Below, piece after piece: positions 40,586-62,619 of a stretch of 64,000 bases of DNA. The stretch spans positions 21,569-85,568 of the forward strand of contig CAWIFZ010000002.1 in the NCBI GenBank assembly GCA_963835415.1. Direction: 5' to 3'. Source of the stretch: an uncultured Actinomycetes bacterium. Its GTDB lineage: Bacteria > Actinomycetota > UBA4738 > HRBIN12. Positions within the stretch are counted from its first letter, which is position 1, and each line of letters begins with the position of its first letter. Made by a program: the position numbers and the translations under genes. Under the pieces are notes generated by a model that made no database searches, was not told the origin of the DNA, and worked only from the letters and a program-made list of their open reading frames with translations.

Positions 40586-41842
40586 GTGGAGGGACCGTAT
40601 GCTTACGCCTCGACGGCTGTCAAGGCGGACTGGATGAGCGGAGAACCGGCGAGGTACTGGCGGGCGGCCGAGCCCAAGTCCAGCTACGACGTGGTCGTGG
40701 TCGGGGCCGGCGGACACGGTCTGGCCACCGCCTACTACTTGGCGCAGAACCACGGCATCACCGACGTCGCCGTCATCGAGAAGGGCTGGCTGGGCGGCGG
40801 CAACATGGCCAGGAACACCACGGTGATCCGCTCGAACTACCTCTGGGATGAGAGCGCGGCGATCTACGAGCACTCGCTCAAGCTGTGGGAGGGGCTCGAG
40901 GAGGCACTGGACTTCGACATCCAGTTCAGCCAGCGCGGCGTGCTGAACCTGGCGCACGATCTGGGCGACGTCCGGACGTCGATGCGGCGCGTGCACGCGA
41001 ACCGGCTGAACGGCGTCGACGCGGAGTGGCTCGATCCATCACAGGTCAAGGAGTTCTGTCCGATCGTGAACGTCTCGCCGGACGCGCGCTATCCGGTGCT
41101 GGGGGCGACGCTGCAGCGGCGGGGCGGCGTGGCCCGCCACGACAAGGTGGCGTGGGCGTTCGCTCGCGGAGCGGATCGCCACGGCGTTGACATCGTGGAG
41201 CACTGCGAGGTCACGGGATTCGTGCGCGGCGACGGCGGTCGCGTGGCGGGCGTCGAGACGACGCGCGGCACGATCCACGCGAACACGGTCGCGCTGGCCG
41301 CGGCCGGCCACACGTCGGTGCTGGCCTCGATGGCAGGGCTGCGGTTGCCGTTGCAGAGCCACCCACTGCAGGCCTTGGTCTCGGTCCTGCTGGAACCGGT
41401 GCTCGGATGCGTCGTGATGTCCAACGCCGTTCACGTGTACGTCTCGCAGGCCGACAAGGGCGAGCTCGTGATGGGGGCGGGCATCGATGCGCACAACTCC
41501 TACACACAGCGCGGCGCGTTCCACATCATCGAACACCAGATGGCAGCGGCGATCGAGCTGTTCCCGATCTTCGCGCACGCCCGGTTGCTACGGACGTGGG
41601 GGGGCATCGTCGACGTGTGCCCAGACGCGTCGCCGATCATCGGGCTCACGCCCGTCGACGGCCTGCTCATCAACTGCGGATGGGGCACGGGCGGCTTCAA
41701 GGCGACGCCGGGCTCCGGATGGGTCTACGCCGACACGATCGCGAACGGCCGACCGCATCCTCTCGCCGAACCCTATGCGCTGGAACGGTTCACGACCGGG
41801 GCGCTGATCGACGAGCACGGCGCCGCCGCGGTGGCGCACTGA
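40586..41842 (+). CDS. soxB: Sarcosine oxidase subunit beta
   Basis: [18 protein letters not shown]. Heterotetrameric SoxB family. An alternative start at 40634 is possible. Confidence 0.85.
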
Positions 41843-41852
41843 GGATGCCGAG

Positions 41853-42104
41853 ATGTTGCTGATCCCCTGCCCCTGGTGCGGTCCGCGCGACGAGGCCGAG
41901 TTCCGGTACGGCGGCCAGGCCGGTCTGTCGTATCCGAGCGACCCCGAGGCGCTCTCCGACGAGCAGTGGGGCGACTACCTGTTCATGCGGGACAACCCGA
42001 AGGGCGACTTCGCGGAGCGGTGGATGCATGCAGCCGGGTGCCGGCGGTGGTTCGACGTCGTCCGCGACACATCGACGGACGAGATCCGCGGCGGGTCGGG
42101 ATGA
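41853..42104 (+). CDS. soxD: Sarcosine oxidase subunit delta
   Basis: 83 aa. CPWCGPRDEAEFRYGG zinc-ribbon-like motif typical of SoxD. Stop overlaps the soxA ATG (ATGA). Confidence 0.85.
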   Translation: MLLIPCPWCGPRDEAEFRYGGQAGLSYPSDPEALSDEQWGDYLFMRDNPKGDFAERWMHAAGCRRWFDVVRDTSTDEIRGGSG

Positions 42105-44714
42105 GGCGACCGGGAACCGGCGGCGACGCGATCGACCGTTCGAGGGCACTGTCGTTCACCTTCGACGACCGGGAACTGTCCGGGTTCGAAGGCGACACGT
42201 TGGCGTCCGCGTTGCTCGCGAACGGCGTGGACGTGGTGTGTCGCTCGCCGATCCAGGGTCGACCGCGTGGGGTGTACTCGGCGGGCGCGGAGGAGCCGTG
42301 CGCGTTCGTCGGTCTGGACGCGCCGTTCGTCGATCCGGTGGTCGCCGCGACGACCGTCGATCTGGTCGACGGGTTGATCGCACACGGCGTGCCCGGCGTG
42401 GGGCGGCTCCCGGCCGAGGGCGTGCCTCCCGTTCGCAGCGAACACCGCCATGCCCACGTCGAGACGCTGGTGATCGGCGCGAGCGTCGAAGGCGTCTCGG
42501 AGGCGAACGCCGCCGCCGCTCGAGGTGATCGTTCGATGTTGGTCGAGTCACGAGGGTGGTTGCCCGGAGAGGTCTCGCCGGACGTCGACGTGCTCGCACG
42601 CGCGACCGCGCTCGGCGTCTACGACGACGGCTACGTGCTGATCCATCAACGGTCTCGTCCCGTCGAGCGCGTGTGGCACGTGCGCGCCCGCAACGTGGTC
42701 CTCGCGACCGGGGCGCACGAGCGTCCGATCGCGTTCGCCGACAACGATCGCCCCGGAGTGATGCTGGCCACGTCCGCCCGGACGTTCCTCGATCGCTTCG
42801 GTGTGGTGCCGGGCACACGGGCCGTGGTGTTCACGACGAACCACCGAGGTCACGATGCCGCGTTCGCGCTGGCGGACGCCGGCGTCGAGATCGCGGCGAT
42901 CGTGGACGTCGGGACGGCAGGCGGCCGGGCGACCGACGCCGCGCGAGCGCGGGGGATCGACGTCCGCGGCGGGTGGGCGGTCGCCGGGACCGACGGCGAG
43001 TCACGCGTCACCGCCGTGCACCTCGAGGGTCCGGCGGGCGAGCGGGACACGATCGACGCCGACCTGCTGCTCGTCTCCGGCGGATGGAGCCCGGTCGTGC
43101 AGCTCTGGCGTGCGATCGGCGGCGGCCTCCGTTACGACGAGCCACGCGCGTGCTTCGTCCCGGATGGGACCGGTCCAGGTTGGCTGTCGGTCGTGGGAGC
43201 CGCCGCCGGCGACGTCCCGACTTCAGAGCCGTACTGGTTCGTTCCGGCCGACGACTACGCGCACCACTACGTGGACATGCAGCGCGACCAGACCGTGGGC
43301 GACGTGTTGGACGCGGTGGAACATGACCTCCGCTCGGTCGAGCACATCAAGCGCGCGACGTACATCGGGACGGCGCTCGACCAGGGACGGACGTCGGGCG
43401 TGCTCACGGCCGCGATCGTGAACCAGGCGCTCGGCGCCGGACCGGATGCGCAGGGCCCGACGAACGCCCGTCCGCCGTACACGCCGGTCTCGTTCGCGGC
43501 GCTCGCGGGCGCCGACCGCGGTCACCTGTTCGATCCGGCGCGCGTGACGCCGATCCACGCGTGGCACGTCGAGCGCGGCGCGGCGTTCGAGAACGTCGGG
43601 CAGTGGAAGCGTCCGTGGTACTTCCCGTCGGACGCGTCGGAGTCGATGGATACAGCGGTCCTCCGCGAAGGGCTGGCGGTACGGACCGGCGTCGGCGTGA
43701 TGGACGCGTCGACGCTCGGCAAGATCGATGTGATCGGCCCCGACGCGGCGACGTTCCTCGATCGCATGTACACGAATCGCATGTCGACGCTCCGCGCCGG
43801 GTCGATCCGCTACGGGTTGATGTGCGGCGTGGACGGCATGGCGTTCGACGACGGGGTCGTGATGCGGCTCGCCGACGACCGGTTCTTCGTCACGACCACG
43901 ACCGGCGGCGCGGCCAAGGTGCTCGAGCACTTCGAGGAGTGGCTGCAGACGGAGTGGCCGGACCTCCGCGTGTATTGCACGAGCGTCACCGAACAGTGGT
44001 CGACGATCGCGATGAACGGGCCGCGCGCCCGCGACGTGCTGGACGCGCTCGGCACCGACGTCGACCTGTCCGCCGGCGCGTTCCCGTTCATGACGTTCCG
44101 CGAGGGGACGGTGGCGGGTATGCCGACGCGGATCGCGCGCGTGAGCTTCAGCGGCGAGCTCGCGTACGAGCTGAACGTGGCCGGTTGGCACGGCCACGCG
44201 ATGTGGGAGGCCGTGATGACGGCCGGCGAGGCCGTTCGACATCACGCCGTACGGCACCGAGGCGATGCACGTGCTGCGGGCGGAGAAGGGGTTCCCGATC
44301 ATCGGGCAGGACACCGACGGGACCGTCACGCCGCATGACCTGGGGATGTCGTGGATCGTGCGGAACGACGACTCGGACTTCCTGGGGAAGCGCTCGTTCC
44401 GACGGCACGACACGATGCGGTCCGATCGCAAGCAGCTCGTCGGTCTGCTCTCAACGGACCCGCAGGTCCTGATCCCCGAGGGCGCGCAGCTGGTCGCGGA
44501 GGACACCGGCCGGATCCCGATGCCGATGGTGGGGCACGTGACGTCGAGCTACCGCAGCGCGATCCTCGACCGCACCTTCGCGCTCGCGATGGTCGAGGGC
44601 GGCCACGCGATGCACGGCCGGACGATCCACGCGCCGCTGCCCGAGGGAACGATCGCCGCGGTGGTCACGTCACCCGTCTTCTACGACCCGGAGGGAGCGC
44701 GGCGTGACGGCTGA
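42101..44714 (+). CDS. soxA: Sarcosine oxidase subunit alpha; frame broken at ~44232
   Basis: NAD/FAD domain. C-terminal GcvT-like folate domain. C-terminal ~150 aa (FDITPYGTEAMHVLRAEKGFPIIGQDTDG...) lie in ORF 44265..44714. The junction gaggccgttcgac is one base too long. Confidence 0.75.
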
Positions 44715-45387
44715 CGAACGCGCGCGGAGCCCGCTGGCGCACCGGTTGGACGACCTGACGGCGATCGGCGTGCGCACCGGCGGCGGCGTGATCGTCGAGC
44801 ACGTCCCGTTCCTCGCGCAGGTGGACGTCCGGGTGGATGCCGCGCTGGGGGGACGAGCGCCGTACCCGCTGCCCACGACGCCGAACACGGCGTGGGAGGA
44901 AGGCCCGCGCGCCGCGCTGTGGCTCGGCCCCGACGAGTGGCTCGTCCTCGGGCCACCCGGCGCCGGGGCGGACATCGTCGGCGAGCTCGGCGCAGCGCTC
45001 GAAGGTTCGCACCGGTCGATCGTCGACGTCTCCGCGAACCGCGTCGCGCTCGAGCTGTCCGGCCCGCGCGCGAAGGAGGTCCTGTCGAAGGGCTGCGCGA
45101 TCGACCTGCACCCTCGCGCGTGGCGGCCGGGGATGTGCGCGCAGACGATGCTCGCGCGCGCACAGGTGATCCTGCATGAGCGATCGGACTCGACGGGGAT
45201 CCTGGTCCGGCCGTCGTTCGCCGACTACCTGGTCGACTGGCTGATTCGACGCCTCGGGAGCCTGACGCCGCGACGAGCTAGCGATCGAGCCGATAGAAGC
45301 GGAGGAAGTCGTGCTCGATCGGCAGCACGGACGCCCCATCGAACCCCGCATCCTTCGCGTAGCGCTCGAACGTCGACCTCCGCATGA
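44704..45387 (+). CDS. soxG: Sarcosine oxidase subunit gamma
   Basis: GTG start overlapping the soxA end. SoxG-like core to ...ILVRPSFADYLVDWL. The last ~35 aa are Arg/Ser-rich and overlap the convergent methyltransferase, so the true stop may be earlier. Confidence 0.6.
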   Translation: MTADERARSPLAHRLDDLTAIGVRTGGGVIVEHVPFLAQVDVRVDAALGGRAPYPLPTTPNTAWEEGPRAALWLGPDEWLVLGPPGAGADIVGELGAALEGSHRSIVDVSANRVALELSGPRAKEVLSKGCAIDLHPRAWRPGMCAQTMLARAQVILHERSDSTGILVRPSFADYLVDWLIRRLGSLTPRRASDRADRSGGSRARSAARTPHRTPHPSRSARTSTSA

Positions 45388-46384
45388 CGGTGCCGGTCGC
45401 CGCCGACGTCTCGTCATCCAGCGCGGACGGCAAGCAGCACAGGACGCTGTATGCGTAGAAGAACCGCTCCGTCTCGCTCGCGGGAGCCGTGAACGCGTCC
45501 TCGGTTCGCTCGTCGGCGACGATCAACGTCCCGCCGGGTTTGAGCATGTTCCTGATCGCGCCCAAGACCGCGACCGGCTGGGACATGTCGTGGATCGACT
45601 CCACCACCATCGCGAGGTCGTATCGGTTCTCCAGCGCGGTGTCTGCCGCGTCCTTCGCCTCGAACCGCACTCGATCCGCCACCCCGGCCTCTTCCGCGTT
45701 CTTGGAGGCGATCTCGATCGAGAGCTCATCGAGGTCGAACCCGTCGACGGCGATGTTCGGATACGCTCGGGCGAGCGAGATGGCGGCCCAACCGACCCCG
45801 CACGCGACGTCGGCCACCCTCGCCCCCGGTTCCTGGAGCCGGTCATGGATGTCCGGGATCGAGGGGATGTACTCGGTGCCGAGGGACGCGACGAGCCACG
45901 GCCGGTTGAAGTCGCCCTGCGCCTCGATCATGTCGCGGCCATAGGAGCTCCACGGGACCTCGCCCCCCGAACGGAAGGCGGCGACGAGCTCGGGCGTGAC
46001 GCTCGATATGGCCACGAACGACTTGCACACCGGCGACATCGAGTACGGGCTGTCGAGATCGAGCAGCGGTTCGGCGTGACCCGCCGGCAGCCGATACCGG
46101 CGTGCGTCGGCGTCGGCCGATAGGTCGTCGACGTCGAGGATCCCGGCTGCGGCTTGCTGCTCGAGCCACTCCCGCGTGAGCCGCTCGGACGTCCCCGCCT
46201 CCTTCGCCAGCTCCGTGGACGACATCGCGCCGACCCGGTCGAGGGTCCGATAGAAGCCGAGCGTGTCGCCGAGATAGACGGTCAGCAACTCCCCCATGCC
46301 CAGACTCGCCGCGAACAGCCGTTCCACGAGCTCATCCCGCTGACGTTCCGTATCGACCACGATCGCCTCCTCACTCTCCGTCAT
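45278..46384 (-). CDS. Class I SAM-dependent methyltransferase with N-terminal winged-helix dimerisation-like domain
   Basis: ATG at 46384 overlaps the MetF-like stop (ATGA). SAM motif I VADVACGVGWAAISLA. Post-I acidic DGFDLDE. Motif LKPGGTLIV. The ORF-track 1234-aa ORF is a fusion artefact of three genes. Confidence 0.75.
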   Translation of the reverse strand: MTESEEAIVVDTERQRDELVERLFAASLGMGELLTVYLGDTLGFYRTLDRVGAMSSTELAKEAGTSERLTREWLEQQAAAGILDVDDLSADADARRYRLPAGHAEPLLDLDSPYSMSPVCKSFVAISSVTPELVAAFRSGGEVPWSSYGRDMIEAQGDFNRPWLVASLGTEYIPSIPDIHDRLQEPGARVADVACGVGWAAISLARAYPNIAVDGFDLDELSIEIASKNAEEAGVADRVRFEAKDAADTALENRYDLAMVVESIHDMSQPVAVLGAIRNMLKPGGTLIVADERTEDAFTAPASETERFFYAYSVLCCLPSALDDETSAATGTVMRRSTFERYAKDAGFDGASVLPIEHDFLRFYRLDR

Positions 46385-47263
46385 GCCACTTCGCCCAGCT
46401 CGGCAAGCATGCGTTGCTGCCAGGCGACCGTGGCCCCGACCTCGTTGAACGTGAACACGTGCAGGCGCTGGATCGCCGCGGTGGGATCGGCAACCGTCGC
46501 GCCCAGCCCTTCGAGCAACGCGTCGGGACCGAAGCTCCCGGGTGAGAGCAGGTGACCGACGATCTTGCGGTTCTTCTTCAGGTAGCGGGCGGAATCGGCG
46601 ACCCCGATCCGCGCGGCGACCCGCATCAGCTTCGTGATCTCGGCGACACCCGGCACGCCCAGGTGGATCGGCATCGTCACGCCCTGCGAACGCAGCCGCG
46701 CGACCCAGCCCGTGATCGCGTCCGGGTTGAAACACATCTGCGTCGCCATGTACGAGGCGTACCGCTGCTTCTCGATCAGCGCCGCGAGCAACACGTCGTC
46801 GGCGATGTCGGGATGACCCTCCGGATACGCGGGCACGCCGAGCTGCAGGAACGGGTGACCGAGCTCGTCCATCGCCCGCAGGAGCGAGAGCCCCGTCGTG
46901 GAACTCACCGCGGTCCTTGGCGTCGCCGCCCACGACGAACGCGCTCCGGATCCCCGTGTCGCTCGCCCGCTGAAGCAGCTCGCGTAGATGCTCACGGCCT
47001 CGGATCATGTGCGCCGACAGGTGGGGGATCGCCTCGTGGCCGAGCGCGGCGACGTCTTCGGACAGGTCGAACGTCGCCTCGATCCCGTGGCTGGGCGACG
47101 CGGTCACGGTGACGGTCGCCCCTGGCGGCAGCGACCCTGCGCGTTCCAAGGCGTTCGACAGCGGGATCAGCTCGAACTTCGGCGTGGAGACGAGCGCGCG
47201 CAGCGCATCGGCCACCTCGGCCGTGATCGCTTCCACGTCGCGTCGCTTGCCCGCCACCGCCAT
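46381..47263 (-). CDS. Methylenetetrahydrofolate-reductase-like (MetF family) protein; frame broken at ~46905
   Basis: ATG at 47263 after GAGGAG. N-terminal part (...AFVVGGDAKDRGEFHDG) and C-terminal part (LSLLRAMDELGHPFLQLGVPAYPEGHP...LHVFTFNE) are joined by removing one G from gacggggctc. Confidence 0.65.
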
Positions 47264-47268
47264 GCTCC

Positions 47269-48822
47269 TCACACGTTCGAGTCGGGGAAGGAGGCCTTCT
47301 TCCGCTCGATCCACTCGCGCAGCTCTTGGTCCACCGCCTCGTCGATCGCCGGCGGCTCGTACTCGGCGAGCATCTTCTTCCAGATCACGCTCGCCCTGTG
47401 AGTCGCGTCCAGCGACCCCTCGGATTCCCACTGCTCGTAGCTGTTGTTGTCGGCGATCGACGACCGATAGAACGCCGTCTCGAAGTTCGCCAGCGTGTGC
47501 GCCGTCCCCAGGAAGTGCTGGCCGGGGCCGTTCTCGATGATCGGCTCCAGCGCCTGACCGTTCGGCGACAGATCCACGCCGCTCGCGAACGCGTGCATCA
47601 TGCCGCACTGATCGAGGTCGAGCACGAACTTCTCGTAACCCATGGTCAGTCCCCCCTCGAGCCAGCCGGCTGCATGCAGGACGAAGTTGACCCCGCCGAG
47701 CATGGTGGGCTGCAGCGTGTTCGCCGACTCGTAGGCCGCCTGGGCGTCGGGGATCTTGGACCCGCAGAGCGACCCCCCGCTGCGGAACGGCACGCGGAGC
47801 CGGCGCGCGCACGCGGCAAGCGTGTAGAGGACGAGCGCGGGCTCGGGGGTACCGAACGTCGGCGCGCCCGACTGCATCGACATCGACGACGCGAACGAGC
47901 CGAACACGACCGGAGCGCCGGGGCGCACCAGCTGCACGTACGTCATGCCGGCCATCGATTCGGCGAGCGTCTGCGCCGCGGCGCCGGCGACGGTCGCCGG
48001 GCTCATGGCGCCCGCCAGGATGAACGGCGTCATGATCACGGCCTGGTTCGCCTCGGCGTAGGCGCGCGCGGCGCCGAGCATCGTGGAGTCCCACACGAGC
48101 GGGGAGTTCGCGTTGATCAAGCTGAGGACGACCGCGTGATCCTCGAGGTAGTCGGCGCCGAACAGGATCCGCGCCATGTCCACCGTGTCCTGCGCGCGCT
48201 GAGGGTGCGTGACGGAGCCCATGAACGGCTTGTCCGAGTACCGCATGTGCGCGTAGACCATGTCGTAGTGCCGCTTGTTCACCGGGAGGTCGACCGGCTC
48301 GCACACGGTCCCGCCCGAGTGGTGCAGGTACGGAGCCATGTACGCGAGCCGCACGAAGTTCTGGAAGTCGTCGAGCGTGCCGTAGCGGCGCCCGCCCTCC
48401 AGGTCGCGGACGAACGGGGAGCCGTACGCCGGGGCGAGGACCGTGTGCATGCCGCCGATCTCGACGTTGTTCGCCGGGTTGCGCGCGAATTGCGTGAAGC
48501 GCTCCGGCGCCGTGGCCTGGATCAGCTCGCGACACATCCCTCGCGGGAACCGCACGCGGTCGCCTTGCACGTCCGCACCCGCCGCCTTGAACAGCTCGTG
48601 GGCGTCGGGCGCATCGCGGAAGTCGATCCCGACCTGCTCCAGGATCGTGTCCGCGTTCTGCTCGATGATCTCGAGCCCCTCCTCGGTCAGGACCTCGAAC
48701 GGCGGGAGCGTGCGCGTGATGTACGGAACGCGGTCGGGCGCGGATGCCGCGCGCGCCGCCTGGCGGCCGGCGCGGCCCCCGGTCCGCCGTCGGGGCGCAT
48801 CGGTCGCTTCGGGTTCGCTCAT
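47269..48822 (-). CDS. MttB-superfamily non-pyrrolysine methyltransferase (glycine-betaine/quaternary-amine:corrinoid methyltransferase, MtgB-like)
   Basis: 517 aa. ATG at 48822 overlaps the upstream stop (ATGA) after GAGAGGAG. Arg-rich N-terminus then TIM-barrel MttB fold (VLAPAYGSPFVRD..., GAMSPATVAGAAAQ, GGVNFVLHAAGWLEGG). Confidence 0.8.
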   Translation of the reverse strand: MSEPEATDAPRRRTGGRAGRQAARAASAPDRVPYITRTLPPFEVLTEEGLEIIEQNADTILEQVGIDFRDAPDAHELFKAAGADVQGDRVRFPRGMCRELIQATAPERFTQFARNPANNVEIGGMHTVLAPAYGSPFVRDLEGGRRYGTLDDFQNFVRLAYMAPYLHHSGGTVCEPVDLPVNKRHYDMVYAHMRYSDKPFMGSVTHPQRAQDTVDMARILFGADYLEDHAVVLSLINANSPLVWDSTMLGAARAYAEANQAVIMTPFILAGAMSPATVAGAAAQTLAESMAGMTYVQLVRPGAPVVFGSFASSMSMQSGAPTFGTPEPALVLYTLAACARRLRVPFRSGGSLCGSKIPDAQAAYESANTLQPTMLGGVNFVLHAAGWLEGGLTMGYEKFVLDLDQCGMMHAFASGVDLSPNGQALEPIIENGPGQHFLGTAHTLANFETAFYRSSIADNNSYEQWESEGSLDATHRASVIWKKMLAEYEPPAIDEAVDQELREWIERKKASFPDSNV

Positions 48823-50856
48823 CAGGTGCTCCTCTCGTTCGTGGGGGTGGCGGGCGCGGGCTCCCGACGGCGTCGGCGGCGCTCGTCCCCGGTCGCGCCG
48901 CCCGAGCTCCGCGGCGGGGGGAGCGGCACGACCGTCGACAGCCGCGGGGACGGCTCCGTGGTGTGCGGGATGCCCATCGCACCGACGAAATGCTCCTGGA
49001 ACCTCGGCTCGATGGCGGTCTCGATCTTCTCGACCCGGCGGACGACGTCCTCGATCTCCGCGCGCGCGGCGCGGTTCAACAGCGCGATCCGCGCGCCCGT
49101 GCCCGCCGCGTTGCCCGCGGACGTCACGTGGTCGGGATCGCAGTCCGGCACCAGACCGAGGACCAGCGCGTGGACGGGATCGATGTGGGCGCCGAACGCG
49201 CCGGCCAGGCGGATGCGGTCGACCGTGGCGATCCCCAGGGTGTCCATCAGCAGCCGGCATCCTGCGTAGAGCGCCGCCTTCGCGAGCTGCACCTGCCTGA
49301 CGTCGTTCTGCGTGATGACCAGACGTGGCGCGCCGTCGTGCACCACGTACGAGAACGTCCGGCCGTCCGGAACGATCCGGGGCGTGCGGGCCGCGAGCGC
49401 GCCGTCGATCACCCCGTCGGTCGTCAGGATGCCGGCCAGGAACATCTCCGCGATCACCTCGATGATCCCGGAGCCGCACACGCCCGTGACCGTCGACGCG
49501 TCGAAGCCGGTCTCGTCGGACCAGCGGTCGTCCCCGATCACCGTGAAGCGCGGCTCCAGCGTTCGCTCGTCGATGCGCACGCGCTCGATCGCCCCCGGCG
49601 CCGCACGCTGGCCACAGCTGATCTGCGCCCCCTCGAACGCCGGGCCGGTGGGGCTGGAGGCAGCGAGCATCCTGTCCCTGTTGCCCAGCACGATCTCCGC
49701 GTTCGTCCCGACGTCGACGATCAGGTTCACGATCTCCTGTTGGTACGGCGCCTCGGACAAGATGACCCCGGCCGTGTCCGCGCCGACGTGCCCTGCGATG
49801 CACGGCAGCAGGTAGACCCGGGCGCCGGGGTGGACAATGCAGATCGACGTCGGTCGCCCGGCGATGGACGGCGCCGTCCGTCGCCAGCGCGAACGGCGCG
49901 CCCCCCAACTCCGTCGGGTCGAGACCCAGGAACAGGTGGTGCATGATCGGGTTGCCGACGATCGTGAGCGCCAGGACGTCGGCCGGGTCGGCGTCCACCT
50001 GCACGCACAGGTCGGCGATCAGCTCGTCGACGCACGCGCGGACCACCTCCGTCAGCTGCGCCTCCGCGCCCGGGTTCATCATCACGTACGAGACGCGGCT
50101 CATGAGGTCCTCACCGAACCGGATCTGCGGGTTCATCGCGCCGCTCACCGCGAGGACGTCGCCGCTCGCCAGGTCGCACAGCTGCCCGGCCACCGTCGTC
50201 GAACCGATGTCGAACGCCACGCCCAGCACGCGGTCACGGAACCCGGGCCAGACGCCGACGATCGTCGCACCGTCGTGCACCGCGACGGTGGCGGTCCAGT
50301 TCTCCGTCCGGAGCGCGCGCTGCAGCCCGGCCAACACGTGGTCGTCGCACGAGAGACCGGTGAGCTCCCAGTCGCGGTCCAGCGCCTCGAGCAGCCGCTC
50401 CAGGTCGCCGGATGGATCGGCCATATCGGGCTCCCGGACCTCGACGTAGTGCAGGCGGACGATCGGATCGACCTCGATCGCGTGCGCGTCGGCGTCTTTC
50501 CGCACGACCTGCCGGTGCAGCTGGCTCTCCGGCGGCACGTCCACCACCAGGTCGCCGATCACCTGCGCGTGACAGCCGAGCCGACGCTCCGGCGCCAGCC
50601 CGGACCGGTCGCGATACGTCTGCTCGGGAAGCGAGAACGCCGTGAGATGGTCTGCCCCCGAGCGGATACCGTGCTTCGCGAAGTCACCCTCGCTCACGAC
50701 CACCTGGCACCGCCCGCAGATCCCCCGGCCGCCGCACACCGAGTCGAGGTCCACGCCGAGCGAGCGGGCAGCCGTCAACAGGTTCGTCCCGTGCGCGAAC
50801 CGCCCGCGCCTGCCGGACGGGGTGAAGACGACGAGCGCCTCGGGCTCGGCGCTCAC
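48822..50856 (-). CDS. Corrinoid reductive-activation enzyme (RamA/RACE type: 2Fe-2S ferredoxin + ASKHA/DUF4445 ATPase); frame broken at ~49820
   Basis: GTG at 50856 overlaps the MtrH-like stop (GTGA). Plant-type ferredoxin motif CGGRGICGRCQV. ASKHA motifs FDIGSTTVAG and LIVDVGTNAE. The halves join if the run ccacccc is shortened by one. Confidence 0.7.
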
Positions 50857-51785
50857 GGTGCCGGCGGCGCCTCGAGGGCGTCGGCGCTCGCGCCGCGCCT
50901 CCCCGCCCGGCCCCCTCGCCGGCCGCCGCCCGCTCCCGCCGGTTGCTCGCGGAACCGCGCGATCCACTCCTGGCAGTCCGGATCGTTGCCCATCATCACG
51001 TCCGCAGCCATCACCGCGGCCCGCACTTCCGTATGCAGCGGGCTCGTGATCGCCGAGGTCATCCCCGACGCGATCGCCATGGTGAGGAACGCGCCGTTCA
51101 GCGTGTTCCGGTTCGGCAGACCGAAGCTGACGTTCGACGCGCCGCACGTGGAGTTCACGCCGAGCTCATCGTGCAGACGCCGCACCAGCGCGAACACTTG
51201 CCGACCCGCCGTACCCATCGCGCCGATCGGCATCACGAGCGGATCGACGACGATGTCTTCCTTGGCGATGCCGTGGTCGGCCGCGCGATGCACGATCTTC
51301 TCGGCGACCGCGAACCGCACGTTCGGGTCCTCGGAGATGCCCGTCTCGTCGTTCGTGATGGCGACGACCGCGGCGCCGTACTTCGCTACCAGCGGCAGCA
51401 CCTGCTCCAGCCGCTCGTCCTCACCGGTCACCGAGTTCACGAGCGGCTTGCCCTGATACACGGCGAGTCCGGACTCCAAGGCGGCGACGATCGACGAGTC
51501 GATCGACAGCGGCACGTCGGTGAGGGACTGGACGAGCTGCACGGTCTCCGCCAGGATCGCGGGTTCGTCGGCGAGCGGGATGCCGGCGTTCACGTCGAGC
51601 ATCTGCGCGCCCGCCTCGACCTGCGCCAAGGCGTCGACGATCACGGTCGAGTAGTCGCCGGCCTTCATCTCCTCGGCGAGCTTCTTGCGGCCGGTCGGGT
51701 TGATGCGCTCGCCGATGATGACGAACGGACGACCGCTGCCGATCACGACCTCGCGCGTGGCGGAGCTGACGACGGTGTCGGTCAT
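50853..51785 (-). CDS. Methyl-corrinoid:tetrahydrofolate methyltransferase (MtrH/AcsE/pterin-binding family)
   Basis: ATG at 51785 after GAGGATGGAG. Pterin-binding barrel (VIIGERINPTG..., MLDVNAG, IDSS). The ORF-track N-terminal extension is a run-on. Confidence 0.75.
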   Translation of the reverse strand: MTDTVVSSATREVVIGSGRPFVIIGERINPTGRKKLAEEMKAGDYSTVIVDALAQVEAGAQMLDVNAGIPLADEPAILAETVQLVQSLTDVPLSIDSSIVAALESGLAVYQGKPLVNSVTGEDERLEQVLPLVAKYGAAVVAITNDETGISEDPNVRFAVAEKIVHRAADHGIAKEDIVVDPLVMPIGAMGTAGRQVFALVRRLHDELGVNSTCGASNVSFGLPNRNTLNGAFLTMAIASGMTSAITSPLHTEVRAAVMAADVMMGNDPDCQEWIARFREQPAGAGGGRRGGRAGRRGASADALEAPPAP

Positions 51786-52093
51786 GAGGTCGCTCCATCC
51801 TCTGTCAGTCCGCCTGAGCGCACGAGCGCGTCGAGCGTCGCGTCCGGATACGCCCGCTCCAGACGTTCCGCCTCGGCGGCCGCTTCCTCGTCCAGGTCGT
51901 CGCCGCACGGCCGCGTCTCGCGATGCCACTCGTTGAGGTAGTCGTCGGTGCCGATCAGCCCCACCCGCGTCGCGGCCATGTCGATCGCCTCCTGGAACCG
52001 GCTCGTGAGCTGCACACGGGCCGTGGTCCGGCCTTCGCGCACGACGACCTGCGCGGGGATCGCCCGCCACCAGATCACGGTCAGCTCAGCCAT
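51782..52093 (-). CDS. Small conserved hypothetical protein (103 aa) embedded in the corrinoid operon
   Basis: ATG at 52093 after GGGAGCGG. Stop overlaps the MtrH-like ATG (ATGA). MAELTVIWWRAIPAQVVV... No family assigned. Confidence 0.5.
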   Translation of the reverse strand: MAELTVIWWRAIPAQVVVREGRTTARVQLTSRFQEAIDMAATRVGLIGTDDYLNEWHRETRPCGDDLDEEAAAEAERLERAYPDATLDALVRSGGLTEDGATS

Positions 52094-52748
52094 GCGCCGC
52101 TCCCACGAACGTCTCCAGCGACGGCTGCAGGTCGCCGTACCCGCTCGGCCGATGCTCGAAGTCCACACCCAGGAACACCGCCGCGGCGCGTGCCTGCTCC
52201 ACCAACGCGGGGTCGTCGGTCTGCGACAGGTACACGAGCCGCCGATAGTTCCCGAAGTACATGGGCAGCAGCTCCGGATGCGTGTCGAGCTTCAGCCCCT
52301 GCACGACCAGCCGGTCGAAGTGCTTGCACAGGAAATCGGTCAGGTAGAACGTGAACGGGTTGTCCTCGTGCATCGCGGCGAACGCATCGACGCCCGCGAA
52401 GAACCCGTAGCAGTGGTCCCCCGGCAGCCGTTCGACGCCATGGGCCGCGCACACCTCATCGAGCGCGCCGGCCGTCCCGCAGTCCCCGTAGGCCACGAAC
52501 ATCGCGTCGTACGCACCGGACGCCTCCGCCTCGGCGAGCTTCGCGTCGACCTTGGCGGCGATCTCACGTGGCGTGTTGTGGAGCTTGCCCGGCAGGCACT
52601 GGAGCGTGACGTGGGTCCAGCCGTTCAGGTCGATCACGGCAAGCACCTCGCGGGCGATCGCGCCGCACGCGACGACGAGCACGCGACCGGAGGGCCCGCC
52701 CGCCTCGGCCTCGAACGTGACCTCGTCGTCAAGCAGTCGCGGCGGCAC
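52086..52748 (-). CDS. DUF1638-domain protein
   Basis: Family hallmarks VVACGAI, FVAYGDCGTAG, LPGDHCYGFF, FYLTDFL, YFGNYRRLVYLSQTD, GYGDL. The exact start is uncertain because it overlaps the upstream stop by ~20 nt. Confidence 0.7.
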   Translation of the reverse strand: MPPRLLDDEVTFEAEAGGPSGRVLVVACGAIAREVLAVIDLNGWTHVTLQCLPGKLHNTPREIAAKVDAKLAEAEASGAYDAMFVAYGDCGTAGALDEVCAAHGVERLPGDHCYGFFAGVDAFAAMHEDNPFTFYLTDFLCKHFDRLVVQGLKLDTHPELLPMYFGNYRRLVYLSQTDDPALVEQARAAAVFLGVDFEHRPSGYGDLQPSLETFVGAAHG

Positions 52749-53424
52749 GGCGGGCCATCACCAGGGCTTGGGCGGTCTCGGAGGCGACGGCGGCATCGCG
52801 GCAATACGCGTCGGCTCCCACCGCCTTGCCGAACTCCTCGTTCAAGGGCGCGCCGCCGACCAACACGATGTAGTCGTCGCGGATGCCCTGCTCGACCATC
52901 GTGTCGATCACGACCTTCATGTACGGCATCGTCGTGGTGAGCAGCGCGGACATGCCCAGGATGTCGGGCTTGTGCTCCTCGAGCGCGGCCAGGTACTTCT
53001 CGACCGGGTTGTTGATGCCCAGGTCGATCACGTCGAAGCCGGCGCCCTCCAGCATCATCGCCACCAGGTTCTTGCCGATGTCGTGGATGTCGCCCTTCAC
53101 GGTGCCGATCACGACCGTGCCCATCCGTTCGGCGCCGGTCTCGGCCAGCAACGGGCGCAGGATCTCCATCCCGGCCTTCATCGCGTTCGCGGCCAGGAGC
53201 ACCTCGGGCACGAACAGGATGCCGTCGCGGAAGTCGATGCCCGACGATGCGCATGCCCTCCACGAGCGCCTCGTTCAGCACGCGATCGGCGGACCATCCC
53301 CGCCCGAGCAGGATGTTCGTCCCCTCGACGATCTCGGGAGCCAATCCGTCGTAGAGGTCGTCGTGCATCTGCTTCGTCAGTTCGTCGTCGGGCAGCGCCG
53401 ACAGATCCAGCTCTTCGTCGTCAT
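52729..53424 (-). CDS. Cobalamin-binding corrinoid protein (MtgC/MtmC-like: B12-binding_2 helical cap + Rossmann B12 domain); frame broken at ~53230 and probably right after the start
   Basis: B12 domain GTVKGDIHDIGKNLV (DxHxxG). Cap domain LDLSALPDDELTKQMHDDLYDGLAPEIVEG...VGHR|FRDGILFVPEVLLAANAMKAG. ATG at 53424 has a perfect GAGGAG but runs into a stop unless one base is restored within ~10 nt. Confidence 0.65.
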
Positions 53425-56022: not shown

Positions 56023-56790
56023 TCAGCCGCCCGTTCGGAGCGCCTCGAGACCGGCGCGGAGCGCGCCGCCGTAGAGGTCGATATCGGAGCCGAGCGCGAC
56101 CATGCGGAACCCGCGGGCGAGCATCGATCGCGCGACGTCAACGGAACCGACCAGGACGCCCGCCGCGATGCCCGCATCGGCGCAGGCGGCCAGCACGCGG
56201 TCTTCCGCCTGGGTCATGCGCGCATCGTCGAACGCCCCGGGGATGCCCATGGCGATCGACAGGTCGAACTGCCCCACCCAGAGGACGTCGACGCCCGGGG
56301 TGACAGCGATCTCCTCGACGTGATGGAGGCCGGCCTCGGTCTCGATCTGCAGGATCACGAGCGTCCCCTCCTCGGCGGCGCGCATCGCCTCGCCGACGCC
56401 CGCCGAGAGCTGATCGCCGTACAGCAGACCGAAGCCGCGGCTGCCGTGAGGAGCGAAGCGAGCCGCCTGCACGACGCGCTCGGCCTCGATCGCGTCGCCG
56501 ATCATCGGCACCATGACGCCACGCGCTCCCACGTCGAGCGCCGGCGAGATCAGCTGACGCGCCGACCCCTGCACGCGCACGAGTGGCTCGACGTCGTGCG
56601 CGCCCGCTGCGGCGAGCAGCGGACGGATCCCCTCGATCCCCCAACCCGTGTGCTCCAGGTCGAGCATCACGAAGTCCGCGCCGGCGTTGGCCACGATGCG
56701 CGGCAGGCCGAGCGTGTGGAACTCGAACACCATGGTGCCGAGCGCGGTTCCACCCTCTGCCAGGCGCGCGCGCAGCGTCGGTCGCGTCAC
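56023..56790 (-). CDS. HpcH/HpaI-family aldolase / citrate-lyase-beta-like protein
   Basis: GTG at 56790 lies 2 nt after the ALDH stop. TIM-barrel PEP-utilising-family motifs (MLDLEHTGWG, VRVQG, LQIETEAG). Confidence 0.65.
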   Translation of the reverse strand: MTRPTLRARLAEGGTALGTMVFEFHTLGLPRIVANAGADFVMLDLEHTGWGIEGIRPLLAAAGAHDVEPLVRVQGSARQLISPALDVGARGVMVPMIGDAIEAERVVQAARFAPHGSRGFGLLYGDQLSAGVGEAMRAAEEGTLVILQIETEAGLHHVEEIAVTPGVDVLWVGQFDLSIAMGIPGAFDDARMTQAEDRVLAACADAGIAAGVLVGSVDVARSMLARGFRMVALGSDIDLYGGALRAGLEALRTGG

Positions 56791-56792
56791 GG

Positions 56793-58241
56793 TCAGCCGA
56801 GGTCGATGACGACGGTCTTCAGCTCGGTCAGGCGATCCATGGAGAACCGGCCGCCCACGCGTCCGACACCGCTCTGCGAGCCTGCACGCCCACCGAACGG
56901 CAGGTGCGACTCCCAGTAGTTCGTTCCCTCGTTGACGTTGACCCATCCCGCGCGCACGGCCTCGGCGAACCGCAACCCGGCCCCCAGGTCGCGGGTGAAG
57001 ATCGCGGTGAGGAGGCCGTACGGCGAGTCGTTCACTGCGCGGATCGCTTCGTCGACGGATCGGATCGTCGAGACCGGCGCCACCGGGCCGAACGTCTCCT
57101 CTCGGGCGATCTCCATATCAGGCGTGACGCCATCCAGGACCGTCGCCTCGAAGAACAGCTCGCTCCCGTTGCTCGGCGCGCGGCTGCCGCCCGCCAGCAC
57201 CACGGCACCGTGCTCGACCGCGTCGCGCACGTGCCGCTCGGTCTTGGCGGCGGTCGGCTCGTTGTTCACCGGACCGAGCGTGGTGGCGTCGTCGAACGGA
57301 TCGCCGATCCGGATCTGCTTGTCGATCGCGGCCGTCAGCAGGCCGAGGTACTCGTCGCGCACGTCCTCGTGGACCAGGATCCGCTCGCCGGCCGTGCAGC
57401 TCTGCCCCGCGTTCAGGAAACAGGCCGTGAGCGTCGCGGCCACCGCCGCATCCAGATCGGCGTCGTCCATGACCACGAGCGGCCCGTTCCCGCCCATCTC
57501 CAGCAGCAATCCCTTGCCGGCGCCGCGGGCGGCCACGGTCAACCCGGTGGCGATCGAGCCGATGAACCCGACGGTCTGGGTGCCCGGGTTGGCGGCGATC
57601 TCGTCGCCCACCACGGGTCCCGGTCCGGTCACCATGTTCACGACGCCCGGTGGGATCTCGGCCGCCTCGATGCACTCCGCCAGCTTCGCCGCGCAGATCG
57701 ACGTGGTCGGAGCCGGCGCCCACACGACGGTGTTCCCGTACGCGATCGCCGGCGCCAGGATCTCGGCGGGCATCGTGTACGGCCAGTTCCACGGGCTGAT
57801 GATCGAGACCACCCCACGGGGCACGCGGTACACGAGCACGCGCTTGTTCGCGTCGACGGACGGCGGCATCAGACCCTCCATCCGCCGGGCGTCCGCGGCA
57901 GCCATCTCGAAGTACGTGATCAGCTCGGCGACTTCGTCGTACGACTCGGCGCGGAGCGGCTTGCCTTGATCGAGGGTGAGCGTGTGCGCGAGGTCGTCCC
58001 GTCGTCCGTCGATCACCTCGGCGATGCGTTCCATGGCAGCCGCCCGGTCGAACACCGAGAGCGCCGCCCACTCGGGCCAGGCCCGGTTCGCCGCGTCGAT
58101 CGCTCGTTGCGCGTCGCCACGCGTCCCCTCGGCCACGCTGCCCACGACCGCGCCGGTCGACGGGCCGATCGCGTCGAACACCGCGCCGTCCTGACCGTCG
58201 ACCCAGTCGCCGTCGACGAACATGCGCACGTGCTCGGTCAT
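56793..58241 (-). CDS. NAD(P)-dependent aldehyde dehydrogenase (betaine-aldehyde-dehydrogenase-like)
   Basis: ATG at 58241 after GGAGG. ALDH Glu and Cys motifs (LEMGGNGP, GQSCTAGER). Sits between the OpuA transporter and the HpcH gene. Confidence 0.8.
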   Translation of the reverse strand: MTEHVRMFVDGDWVDGQDGAVFDAIGPSTGAVVGSVAEGTRGDAQRAIDAANRAWPEWAALSVFDRAAAMERIAEVIDGRRDDLAHTLTLDQGKPLRAESYDEVAELITYFEMAAADARRMEGLMPPSVDANKRVLVYRVPRGVVSIISPWNWPYTMPAEILAPAIAYGNTVVWAPAPTTSICAAKLAECIEAAEIPPGVVNMVTGPGPVVGDEIAANPGTQTVGFIGSIATGLTVAARGAGKGLLLEMGGNGPLVVMDDADLDAAVAATLTACFLNAGQSCTAGERILVHEDVRDEYLGLLTAAIDKQIRIGDPFDDATTLGPVNNEPTAAKTERHVRDAVEHGAVVLAGGSRAPSNGSELFFEATVLDGVTPDMEIAREETFGPVAPVSTIRSVDEAIRAVNDSPYGLLTAIFTRDLGAGLRFAEAVRAGWVNVNEGTNYWESHLPFGGRAGSQSGVGRVGGRFSMDRLTELKTVVIDLG

Positions 58242-58266
58242 GGGCTCACGCCTCCACGAGACGTAC

Positions 58267-58291
58267 GGGGGCGGCCCGAAGGGCCGCCCCC
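58267..58291 (-). terminator. Perfect GC hairpin (11-bp stem, GAA loop) between opuAC and the aldehyde dehydrogenase
   Basis: gggggcggccc-gaa-gggccgccccc. Lies 30 nt downstream of the opuAC stop and 26 nt upstream of the ALDH start. No U-tract, so it is an I-shaped actinobacterial-style terminator or attenuator. Confidence 0.45.
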
Positions 58292-58320
58292 GAGGACGTC
58301 TCGCTCGTCTCTGTCCGTGC

Positions 58321-59351
58321 TCAGCCCTGCGCGGCGAGGCCGGCGTCGACCCACGGCTGCCAGATGTCCGGGTTCGCGTCGATCCACTTCTGCGCCGCCT
58401 CTTCCGGCGACATCCCGTTGTTGATGTCGAGCGCGATCGAGTTCTGATCGTCGTTCGTGTACGACATCGCGGACAGCATCGCGAATGCCGCCGGGGCGTC
58501 GGTCTGCAGATCGGCGTTGAACGCCTTGTAGAGCGGATCCGGCGGGTAGCCGCACGCGTACTTCGACACGTCGTCGGCGGCCGCCGCCTCACAGGCCGGA
58601 CGTCATCTCGGGCAACTGCGACCATGGTGAGGTCGTACTTCGACTGCGCCCAGTGAGGCGTCCAGAAGTACATGAGGATGGGGCCTTCCTTCTGGTACGC
58701 CGCATCGAGCGCTGCCAGCTCGGCGGCCTCAGAGCCGCCGTAGACCACCTTCAGGTTCAGCCCCAGGTTGTCCGCGATCGGTTGGTCGAACGTCACGAAG
58801 CTCGGGTCACCGTCGAGGATCTGGCCCGCGTCACCGCTCTCCGCGGTCTTGAACATGTCGGCGTCGGTCTTCAGACCCTCCCACGTGGCGAGCTCCGGGT
58901 GATCCGTGAGCATGTAGGTGGGGATCCACCACCCGATCTGGCCGGTGACACCAAGATCGCCGCCGTCCACCACGCCGTTGTTTCCATCGATGAACTTCTT
59001 GTAGTCCTTCGCGTGACCGGAGGGCCAGACCTCGAGCGTGGCGCTCAACTGACCGTTCGCGAGCGCCGGGAACTGCGCGTACTCGTCGATCTTGGTCGTC
59101 TTGACCGTGTACCCGAGCTTGTCCTGCAGCAGGACTTGGGCCAGCGCCACGTTCGCATCGGATCCGGTCCACGGGCTGATGGCGAGGTTGATCGTCGTGC
59201 CGGAGTTATCGGGGACCTCGGCGGCGCCACCGGTCGCGCCCGATGCCCCCGTCGACCCTCCCGAGTTGTCGTCGCTCACGTCGCTACACGCGGCCGCGAG
59301 CGTGGCCACCACAGCGAGCACCGCGAGGAACCCCCACCGTCGCTTCTTCAT
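58321..59351 (-). CDS. Glycine betaine/choline ABC transporter substrate-binding lipoprotein (OpuAC/ProX); frame broken near 58590
   Basis: ATG at 59351 after AAGGAGAGGAG. Lipoprotein signal MKKRRWGFLAVLAVVATLAAAC. OpuAC fold. C-terminal 80 aa (ORF 58321..58569: SKYACGYPPDPLYKAF...) lie in a different frame from the body. Confidence 0.7.
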
Positions 59352-61448: not shown

Positions 61449-62486
61449 CAGCCCGCGCTCTCCATCATCGCCGTCAGGACCGCCGCGCGGTCCAGGATGC
61501 CCACCTGCTCGGCGCCCTCCACCACGCGGTAGGGACGGTCGCTCGTCACCATGAGCGGGAGCACCTCCTGCACGATCGTGGCGGCCGCGATGTCGCCGGC
61601 GTAGTCGGTCTCACCGTTCGTCGCGCGCATGATCGTGCGGACGGTGAGGACGTGCGCACGCGGGACGTCGCGGGTGAAGTCCGCGACGTAGTCGTCGGCC
61701 GGATGCGCCACGACCTCTTCGGGGGTGCCGATCTGGACGAATCGCCCGTCCTTCATGATCGCGATCCGGTCGCCGAGCTTCAGCGCCTCCATCAGATCGT
61801 GCGTGATGAAGATCATCGTCTTGCGGAGCTCGCGCTGCAGACGGACGACCTCGTCCTGCATGTCACGGCGGATCAACGGATCGAGCGCGCTGAACGGCTC
61901 GTCGAACAGCATGATCTCGGGGTCCGTGCAGAGCGCGCGCGCCAAGCCGACGCGCTGCTGCATCCCGCCGGACAGTTCATCGGGATACGCGTTGCCCATC
62001 CCACCCAGGCCCACGACCTCGAGGACTTCGTCGGCACGCGCCATGCGCGTCTCCTTGTCGATCCCTTGCACCTCCATGCCGAACGCGACGTTGTCCACGA
62101 TCCGACGGTGCGGGAACAGGCCGAAGTGCTGGAACACCATCGAGATCTTCCGTCGCCGGACCTCGCGCAGGCGGTCGTCGTCGAACCCGAGGATGTCCTC
62201 GCCGTCCAGCAGGATCTGACCGGCCGTCGGCTCATGCAGCCGGTTCATCATCCGCACGAGCGTGGACTTCCCGGAGCCGGAGAGCCCCATCACGACGAAG
62301 ACCTCGCCCGGCGTGGACGTCGAACGAGACGTCGCGCACGGCGGCCACGCAGCCCGTCTTCTCGAGGAGCTCGCTGCGGGGCAGGTCCGCGTCGGGGGTT
62401 CCGACGATCCGATCGGCGTTCGGCCCGTAGATCTTCCACGCGTTGCGGCAGGACACAGCGACCTGACTCGGCTCGTCCACCGGCAT
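61448..62486 (-). CDS. proV: Glycine betaine ABC transporter ATP-binding protein (ProV/OpuAA, with C-terminal CBS-like region); frame broken at ~62300
   Basis: N-terminus [11 protein letters not shown]...FDVHAG in ORF 62232..62513. Walker [11 protein letters not shown], signature LSGGMQQRV and Walker [11 protein letters not shown] in ORF 61448..62293. The junction gccgggcgag has one extra G. Confidence 0.75.
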
Positions 62487-62559
62487 CCCCCGTCCCCGGG
62501 TGGCGGCGCGCACCCGACCGCTGGATAGTGGGACTCAGTCGTCGCGCGCGCAAGGTAAC

Positions 62560-62578: not shown

Positions 62579-62619
62579 ACGCCGTGCAGCGGCGGCTCGG
62601 CTCGGGCAGAATCCCGGCC

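Follow-up and report, generated by a model that had tools for sequence, protein, structure and literature searches.

What part can a complete set of genes for corrinoid-dependent methyl transfer play in the middle of a betaine pathway that otherwise appears to depend on oxygen? The question is raised by a 64,000-nucleotide stretch of contig CAWIFZ010000002.1 (assembly GCA_963835415.1) from an uncultured Actinomycetes bacterium, referred to below as the window. In it, a first-pass annotation had described an MttB-family methyltransferase, a B12-binding corrinoid protein, a ferredoxin-ASKHA reductive activase, a methyl-corrinoid:tetrahydrofolate (THF) methyltransferase and a MetF-like reductase, and had equated them with the enzyme set known from anaerobic glycine betaine demethylation. 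Our analysis indicates that the module is probably an aerobic-type cobalamin-dependent glycine betaine demethylase, composed of MtgB, MtgC and MtgD with a RACo/RamA-like activase, a DUF1638 protein and a MetF2-like enzyme. It fits the aerobic MtgBCD set of Ruegeria, Phaeobacter and Sinorhizobium rather than the anaerobic one, because it includes a pterin-binding protein of the MtgD type, DUF1638 and an activase of the RACo type.

The aerobic set provides the background for this assignment. Ruegeria pomeroyi, an aerobe, needs the B12-binding protein MtgC and the pterin-binding protein MtgD for growth on betaine and for its consumption (Mausz et al. 2025, PMC12478193), and two PF06253 proteins, a RamA-like protein, DUF1638 and MetF2 are induced in this organism by betaine, choline and carnitine (PMC12478193). 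In many other bacteria, Sinorhizobium meliloti included, these genes cluster with those for the later demethylation steps (PMC12478193). Aerobic growth of Phaeobacter inhibens requires both a ferredoxin-DUF4445 (RamA-like) protein and DUF1638 (Price et al. 2018, PMC5764234). The combination of oxic life with a corrinoid demethylase, which the first-pass annotation had implied to be novel, was thus published in 2025 for aerobes lacking GbcAB (PMC12478193). New in the window are the host lineage and the compact form of the operon; the type of metabolism is not.

Composition of the corrinoid operon

Genes were called from third-position GC and a frame model in a window of ~70% G+C. All genes from ~62.5 kb down to 45.3 kb lie on the minus strand, and the module itself consists of eight tightly coupled genes (53424 to 45278), given here in order of transcription with their Pfam matches.

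53424 to 52729, minus strand: corrinoid (B12-binding) protein, MtgC-like (B12-binding_2 + B12-binding)
52748 to 52086, minus strand: DUF1638 protein (PF07796, 100 bits)
52093 to 51782, minus strand: PF13769 ('Virulence_fact') protein of 104 amino acids (PF13769, 79 bits)
51785 to 50853, minus strand: methyl-corrinoid:THF methyltransferase, MtgD-type (Pterin_bind PF00809, 104 bits)
50856 to 48822, minus strand: RACo-type reductive activase (Fer2 + RACo_linker + RACo_middle + RACo_C_ter)
48822 to 47269, minus strand: non-pyrrolysine MttB-superfamily methyltransferase, predicted MtgB (PF06253, 755 bits)
47263 to 46381, minus strand: divergent MetF-like protein (MTHFR, 35 bits, in the C-terminal part)
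46384 to 45278, minus strand: S-adenosylmethionine (SAM)-dependent methyltransferase (Methyltransf_31/25/11 + HTH_65)

All five of the gene types named earlier were recovered by their Pfam domains, and the boundaries given for them, 46381 and 53424, coincide exactly with the MetF stop codon and the ATG of the corrinoid gene. The DUF1638 and PF13769 genes, which also lie inside this span, had been overlooked. Neighbouring genes meet in ATGA, GTGA or TGATG junctions or are separated by gaps of 5-20 nt with a GGAG-type ribosome-binding site. The GTG start of DUF1638 overlaps the 3' end of the corrinoid gene; the PF13769 gene sits between DUF1638 and the THF methyltransferase gene, whose ATG overlaps the PF13769 stop (ATGA); the activase start overlaps the stop of the THF methyltransferase (GTGA), and the ATG of MttB overlaps that of the activase (TGATG); the MetF-like gene starts 5 nt past the MttB stop; and an ATGA junction couples the start of the SAM methyltransferase gene to the end of MetF. 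Because start and stop codons of adjoining genes overlap or nearly touch, the arrangement points to translational coupling that runs from a dimethylglycine dehydrogenase (DMGDH)-like gene, which immediately precedes the corrinoid gene, to the SAM methyltransferase. An Rfam scan of the window detected no cobalamin riboswitch nor any other family at the gathering threshold, and a search for sigma-70 promoters and intrinsic terminators around the operon gave nothing above shuffled expectation.

Each of the core proteins can be placed by domain content and structural relatives. The corrinoid protein combines the B12 cap (PF02607) and B12-binding (PF02310) domains with a DxHxxG motif, here DIHDIG, once the frame is repaired at two single-base indels; its best NCBIfam match is MtgC_2 (207 bits, cut-off 370) and its nearest structure 1Y80 (189 bits). 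The THF methyltransferase, previously described as MtrH-like, belongs rather to the MetH/AcsE pterin-binding family (PF00809). It passes NCBIfam PRK07535 (359 versus a cut-off of 259), its match to MetH is partial, and its matches in the Protein Data Bank (PDB) are MT2-DH (4O0Q), MetH and MeTr, a group from which the Desulfitobacterium hafniense MtgA structures (6SJ8 and others) are absent. As a PF00809 protein homologous to module 1 of MetH, it has the defining features of MtgD.

The activase consists of an N-terminal [2Fe-2S] ferredoxin, with the cysteine motif CGGRGICGRC...C, joined to an ASKHA ATPase domain. Its four Pfam domains stand in the order seen in RACo, to which it aligns over its full length (3ZYY; 335 bits over residues 8-632). 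The earlier call of a RamA/RACE-type ferredoxin-ASKHA activase is thus confirmed, and the protein is of the RACo type. The methanogen RamA model matches weakly (117 versus a cut-off of 500); AcsV is likewise below its cut-off (383 versus 800). Both members of the reactivation pair, a ferredoxin + DUF4445/ASKHA RamA-like protein and DUF1638, are therefore encoded in the window. By analogy with the fitness data from P. inhibens (PMC5764234) and the induction in R. pomeroyi, DUF1638 would be a genetically implicated accessory of B12 reactivation; for PF13769 we found no literature.

The MetF-like protein, an MTHFR paralogue encoded with the system as MetF2 is, is highly divergent (50 bits to TIGR00676, cut-off 294). 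Its nearest solved structure is S6MTHFR of Sphingobium lignivorans SYK-6 (7XG9, 114 bits), all other MTHFR entries scoring 44 bits or less. S6MTHFR oxidises methyl-THF downstream of the THF-dependent demethylases of the LigM pathway (Yu et al. 2025, PMC11868366). Because the nearest solved relative is an enzyme that oxidises CH3-THF, we infer by analogy that the window protein most plausibly runs in the oxidative direction, from methyl-THF to methylene-THF, as the first-pass annotation had proposed after the LigM-MetF model.

The last gene of the operon appears to be an addition. Its product has an Rv2258c-like winged helix at the N-terminus, and its top NCBIfam match, well below cut-off, is the corrinoid-protein-associated methyltransferase CpaM. 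No homologue occurs in any of the 80 related loci described below; because it is specific to this genome among them, the SAM methyltransferase is probably not a core part of the module.

The methyltransferase, its relatives and the surrounding route

The MttB gene is an intact open reading frame (ORF) of 517 codons without an in-frame stop. Compared with PDB structures, its product scores 728 bits against S. meliloti 4YYC (63% identity), 408 against D. hafniense MtgB (DhMtgB; 2QNE/9YCE, 43% identity) and 103 against the pyrrolysine-containing MttB 7XCL, so that the score against the MtgB structure is fourfold that against pyrrolysine MttB. A pyrrolysine-type trimethylamine methyltransferase, an identity that would have undone the earlier proposal, can be ruled out: there is no in-frame stop, and TIGR02369 gives 248 against a cut-off of 525. 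The enzyme is therefore a PF06253 protein without pyrrolysine, as expected of the first methyltransferase of such a system.

Relatives of this MttB make up more than 120 database clusters (80% identity or higher), almost all of them from uncultured Actinomycetota. Scanning representative genomes gave 80 related loci, 52 of which have enough flank to be counted. The hosts comprise Actinomycetes, Thermoleophilia/Gaiellales, Acidimicrobiia, Chloroflexota (Limnocylindrales), Comamonadaceae, Steroidobacteraceae and other Gammaproteobacteria, and an Acidobacteriota metagenome-assembled genome (MAG). The THF methyltransferase and the activase adjoin MttB in 46 of the 52 loci, the corrinoid gene is present in 45, PF13769 stands beside the module in 44, MetF is found in 41 and DUF1638 in 31; DMGDH-like and Sox genes also occur in roughly a quarter to a third. 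In thirteen actinomycete loci (L004-L007, L009-L011, L014, L015, L017, L019-L021) the corrinoid and PF13769 genes are immediate neighbours and tblastn (E <= 1e-3) detects no DUF1638 homologue in the locus, so DUF1638 is not an obligatory part of the cassette. Among cultured bacteria, S. meliloti and Paracoccus methylovorus carry MttB orthologues 64-66% identical to that of the window, and in both the neighbours are genes for a cobalamin-binding protein, DUF1638, a methyl-THF:cobalamin methyltransferase, an ASKHA protein and MTHFR. The S. meliloti cluster additionally contains a PF13769 gene annotated as 'virulence factor', with bmt and a betaine transporter within 10 kb.

The genes around the module give it a metabolic setting.

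55908 to 53442, minus strand: DMGDH/DMGO-type flavoenzyme, predicted to demethylate dimethylglycine (DAO + FAO_M + GCV_T + GCV_T_C)
56035 to 56796, minus strand: HpcH/HpaI-family aldolase, between the aldehyde dehydrogenase and the DMGDH-like gene
56793 to 58322, minus strand: aldehyde dehydrogenase, candidate betaine aldehyde dehydrogenase (Aldedh, 482 bits)
58321 to 62483, minus strand: OpuA-type glycine betaine ABC transporter (ABC_tran, BPD_transp_1 twice, OpuAC over two frames)
62488 to 64000, plus strand: BetA-type choline dehydrogenase, cut by the window end (GMC_oxred_N + GMC_oxred_C)
40586 to 45278, plus strand: soxB, soxD, soxA and soxG, heterotetrameric sarcosine oxidase (DAO; SoxD; Fer2_4 + SO_alpha_A3 + GCV_T; SoxG)
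29664 to 30926, minus strand: Rieske oxygenase alpha subunit, 16 kb from the module
3801 to 6209, plus strand: second full-length DMGDH/SARDH-type enzyme, ~40 kb from the module (DAO + FAO_M + GCV_T + GCV_T_C)

The transporter comprises an ATPase, permease domains and an OpuAC binding protein. BetA, which is divergent from the operon, passes NCBIfam PRK02106 (734 versus 605), and SoxB passes TIGR01373 (644 versus 529). Apart from these two, the NCBIfam equivalog cut-offs are passed only by the pterin-binding methyltransferase and a methylmalonate-semialdehyde dehydrogenase (MMSDH). The aldehyde dehydrogenase falls below both betaine aldehyde dehydrogenase models (365 versus 669, 332 versus 593). 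The soxBDAG genes are convergent with the operon, and an IclR regulator gene comes after them; the position given for the 3' end of soxG is approximate, and the GCV_T_C domain of soxA is found in the next frame.

Taken together, the window covers the conversion of choline through betaine aldehyde to betaine and that of dimethylglycine through sarcosine to glycine. Pfam and NCBIfam scans of its 64 kb found neither a bona fide GbcAB nor any BHMT or homocysteine methyltransferase domain, and among the Pfam-scanned genes only one belongs to PF06253. Because GbcAB and BHMT are missing from the window, the corrinoid module fills the gap between betaine and dimethylglycine; judged by gene content, it is the sole candidate there for this step and is complementary, not redundant. 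Of the two strategies that the first-pass annotation had offered, the hybrid one is supported, in which the first demethylation depends on a corrinoid protein and flavin-dependent enzymes then demethylate dimethylglycine and sarcosine oxidatively, whereas the redundant one is not, the module filling the only gap in the choline-to-glycine route. The accompanying description of the surroundings as strictly O2-dependent needs qualification: it applies to SoxBDAG and to the distant Rieske enzyme, but BetA is a dehydrogenase and not an oxidase, and oxygen dependence is not established for the DMGDH-type enzymes. Of the two DMGO genes placed around the module, one flanks it and the other lies ~40 kb off; the Rieske oxygenase is present, but 16 kb away and far under the GbcA cut-off.

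Several candidates and neighbours at greater distance complete the picture. The Rieske oxygenase was considered as a second, redundant betaine demethylase GbcA and rejected (NF058607 188 versus a cut-off of 670; no adjoining GbcB reductase). Its neighbours (28760-32873, minus strand) encode an arginase-family protein, a DinB_2 protein and MMSDH, and it probably belongs to a separate catabolic cluster. The PALP gene beside IclR was rejected as a serine dehydratase, as it scores cysteine-synthase-like. Upstream in the window, an HTH-cupin regulator, a choline/ethanolamine-kinase-like protein and the second DMGDH-like enzyme form a small cluster linked to methylated amines (2170-6209, plus strand). 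A DAO-family oxidoreductase at 12217-13614 (plus strand), after which come ABC-2 transporter genes, best matches a 'putative aminophosphonate oxidoreductase' (411 versus a cut-off of 633). The HpcH/HpaI-family aldolase is common only to the two nearest relatives, L001 and L002.

Substrate, gene integrity and rival explanations

In DhMtgB, the betaine site is formed by Y97, R312, H348 and F356, as defined by mutagenesis and a liganded structure, and the F356L substitution raises the Km several hundred-fold (Picking et al. 2026, PMC13080624). The counterparts of Y97, R312 and H348 are invariant in the window MttB, in 4YYC and in all 80 loci. All of these proteins also share an invariant HxxGWLEGG segment (residues 376-385 of the 510-amino-acid query), where D. 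hafniense MtgB reads HTAGILQYF; the segment marks a clade made up of this window, the 80 related loci and S. meliloti 4YYC. Its invariant Trp occupies the position of I352, four residues before the F356 equivalent. If the segment is helical, this Trp would lie one turn earlier on the same face and may act as a second cation-pi partner. Only tentatively do we propose that the clade, with a rebuilt aromatic cage, PF13769 and DUF1638, constitutes an oxygen-tolerant corrinoid machinery with accessory factors absent from anaerobic systems.

A number of points weigh against the assignment of the module as a betaine demethylase. The position of F356 is occupied by Gly in the window MttB, in 4YYC and in all 80 loci, so that three of the four DhMtgB site residues match. 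MtcB and MtyB, two MttB paralogues that are 53% identical, differ in their preferred substrate; 43% identity to DhMtgB is therefore insufficient to fix specificity. No member of the clade has been assayed biochemically, and the R. pomeroyi MtgB proteins (SPO2108/SPO2134) are themselves implicated by induction only, not by knockout (PMC12478193). The corrinoid protein, activase, MttB and MetF all score below their NCBIfam equivalog cut-offs. In the MetF-like protein, four of five named S6MTHFR residues are changed (L48 to S, R78 to M, C219 to I and P268 to T), F269 and P49 being kept. It does not match the type 4 residues in loop beta2-alpha3, helix alpha8 and loop beta8-alpha11, a weak test that uses a single pairwise alignment at ~30% identity, and its likeness to S6MTHFR is best taken as a functional analogy, not as type 4 membership. 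Cobalamin supply and the organism's lifestyle lie beyond the reach of a 64-kb window. Finally, the corrinoid, activase and MetF genes are not intact as sequenced, each being interrupted by single-base indels.

Because one of the four betaine-binding residues of MtgB is replaced, our inference that glycine betaine is the substrate draws mainly on operon context. This leaves room for a reading in which the same machinery acts on another donor (proline betaine, carnitine, gamma-butyrobetaine, choline or phosphocholine), with betaine left to genes elsewhere in the genome. Glycine at F356 together with the clade-specific Trp makes an aromatic cage unlike that of the only structurally defined betaine enzyme, specificity in the superfamily shifts at ~50% identity, and genomes with the system often hold several PF06253 paralogues, for which action on other methylated compounds has been suggested (Mausz et al., PMC12478193). 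Nonetheless, we consider a different donor unlikely. The first aromatic Tyr does not vary, nor do the Arg and His that bind the carboxylate. The operon context is that of betaine specifically, with OpuAC, BetA and an aldehyde dehydrogenase beside the enzymes for the two demethylations that come next; DMGDH and Sox genes accompany the module in about a third of the related loci as well, and the window holds a single PF06253 gene among those scanned and no alternative betaine demethylase. In a further reading, a split cobalamin-dependent methionine synthase of the P. inhibens kind would be the main function of the corrinoid protein, the pterin-binding methyltransferase, the activase and DUF1638, and MttB would be only an accessory input. 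To this we give the smallest chance of the readings weighed here: no homocysteine S-methyltransferase (PF02574, MtgE) was found in the 64-kb window, and the genes are coupled to MttB, MetF and betaine catabolism, not to methionine genes. A dual role is possible, but it would be additional to betaine demethylation rather than an alternative to it.

The interruptions bear on a third rival, in which the frameshifts are genuine and the module and its neighbours are a decaying, non-functional catabolic island. Indels were judged against loci L001-L011, and those of the corrinoid gene against L001, L002, L004 and L011.

46892, minus strand: +1 insertion, MetF-like gene
49837, minus strand: +1 insertion, activase gene
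53239, minus strand: +1 insertion, corrinoid gene
~53421, minus strand: -1 deletion, directly after the corrinoid ATG
54186, minus strand: +1 insertion, DMGDH-like gene
44235, plus strand: +1 insertion, soxA
near 58590, minus strand: two extra bases, OpuAC gene
~60514, minus strand: extra base, permease gene
62306, minus strand: domain split across frames, ABC ATPase gene
1439: domain split across frames, amidohydrolase, unrelated to betaine metabolism
21092 and 21807: domain split across frames, phosphoesterase, unrelated to betaine metabolism

In the interval from 44 to 62 kb, genes are broken by at least ten single-base indels, and three of the eight genes of the module are affected, as would be expected of decay. 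Removal of one base per insertion restores a full-length ORF in the DMGDH-like, RACo and MetF genes; in the corrinoid gene, removal at 53239 gives a continuous frame, with the ATG still out of reach owing to the -1 deletion. The interrupted genes contain no nonsense codons, and their halves retain a third-position GC of ~0.9 and 82-99% amino-acid identity to the intact orthologues of L002. This locus, the nearest short-read (Illumina) relative, is 87% identical in nucleotide sequence and colinear with the window from 58767 to 46381, and it has every gene in one frame; its DMGDH-like orthologue is an intact 835-amino-acid open frame, stop to stop. Far-off and unrelated genes of the window, the amidohydrolase and the phosphoesterase, are split alike, and the nearest relatives are known from metagenome assemblies, of which many are long-contig MAGs. 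Because the indels are spread over the whole window, unrelated genes included, and come without substitution-type damage, they are most likely sequence or assembly errors and not gene decay, which we regard as very improbable. Programmed frameshifting was also rejected as the source of the split genes, since the orthologues are all in one frame and unrelated genes are hit as well. Relative to the orthologues nearly all of the indels are insertions, a pattern that suggests an unpolished or error-prone assembly. The soxG frame (44704-45387, plus strand) stays open for ~110 nt beyond its homology to relatives and overlaps the convergent methyltransferase gene (45278-46384, minus strand), which may reflect another indel near its 3' end.

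Proposed pathway and known systems

If the module is a betaine demethylase of the aerobic type, its products could act in the following sequence. Betaine would be imported by the OpuA-type transporter or made from choline via BetA and the aldehyde dehydrogenase. The MttB-family TIM-barrel enzyme would give an N-methyl group of betaine to corrinoid Co(I), yielding dimethylglycine and methyl-Co(III), and the pterin-binding methyltransferase would pass the methyl group to THF. The MetF-like enzyme would then oxidise methyl-THF to methylene-THF for C1 oxidation or assimilation. Inactive Co(II), expected often in an oxic cell, would be re-reduced by the [2Fe-2S]/ASKHA activase using ATP, assisted by DUF1638 and perhaps by the PF13769 protein. 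The adjoining DMGDH-type enzyme and SoxBDAG would oxidatively demethylate dimethylglycine and sarcosine.

With this assignment, a pathway established by experiment in marine bacteria and rhizobia would reach high-GC soil actinomycetes as well, and the related loci would add Chloroflexota, Acidimicrobiia and Gammaproteobacteria. In these lineages all parts would lie in a single operon beside the rest of the choline-to-glycine route. 'Trimethylamine methyltransferase' or 'mttB' calls in soil metagenomes are commonly read as anaerobic methylotrophy; this cassette would instead indicate oxic betaine catabolism and a demand for cobalamin. DUF1638 and PF13769 become conserved candidates for keeping a Co(I) enzyme working under oxygen. 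Should the more tentative proposal of an oxygen-tolerant clade also hold, a major and B12-demanding route by which osmolytes are turned over in oxic soils would be the cobalamin-dependent demethylation of betaine in abundant uncultured Actinomycetota and Chloroflexota, and many of the soil-metagenome 'mttB' calls would have been wrongly taken for anaerobic methylotrophy.

Comparison with individual known systems places the window module by both its likenesses and its differences. The activase shares its domain order with RACo of Carboxydothermus hydrogenoformans (PDB 3ZYY, 4C1N), ferredoxin-linker-middle-ASKHA over the full length, but its partner is a small MtgC-type corrinoid protein, whereas that of RACo is CoFeSP. 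With the S6MTHFR system the window shares a genomic logic, an MTHFR homologue directly after a demethylase that produces methyl-THF. The split methionine synthase of P. inhibens (PMC5764234) has the same corrinoid protein, pterin-binding protein, ferredoxin + DUF4445/ASKHA activase and DUF1638; unlike it, the window lacks a homocysteine methyltransferase module, and the genes are coupled to MttB and betaine catabolism.

D. hafniense MtgABC (2QNE, 9YCE; PMC13080624) resembles the window system in its MttB-family first methyltransferase (43% identity, 408 bits), in the conserved equivalents of Y97, R312 and H348 and in a three-component logic with a corrinoid carrier. The two differ in that the THF methyltransferase of the window belongs to another family (PF00809), to which the DhMtgA structures are not detectably related, in the Gly for F356 and the Trp at the I352 position, and in context, which is oxic catabolism in the window and anaerobic respiration in D. 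hafniense.

The closest counterpart is the MtgBCD system of R. pomeroyi DSS-3 and S. meliloti (PMC12478193), with orthology to R. pomeroyi MtgB judged by proxy, from the 63% identity to S. meliloti 4YYC and the shared cluster composition. Both have the same six protein families, the same proposed flow from betaine through Co and THF to methylene-THF, and co-location with dimethylglycine and sarcosine demethylation genes; the S. meliloti and Paracoccus orthologues share 63-66% identity with the window MttB, and a PF13769 gene is present in the S. meliloti cluster as well. Unlike the known hosts, which are marine or rhizobial proteobacteria, the host here belongs to a soil actinomycete lineage. 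No MtgE/Bmt gene lies nearby in the window, its operon has an extra SAM methyltransferase coupled at the 3' end, and a single divergent MTHFR-like protein stands in place of the pair of MTHFR and 'MTHFR C-terminal domain' proteins of S. meliloti and Paracoccus. Whereas the parts are scattered in R. pomeroyi, they are all joined in the window in one coupled operon.

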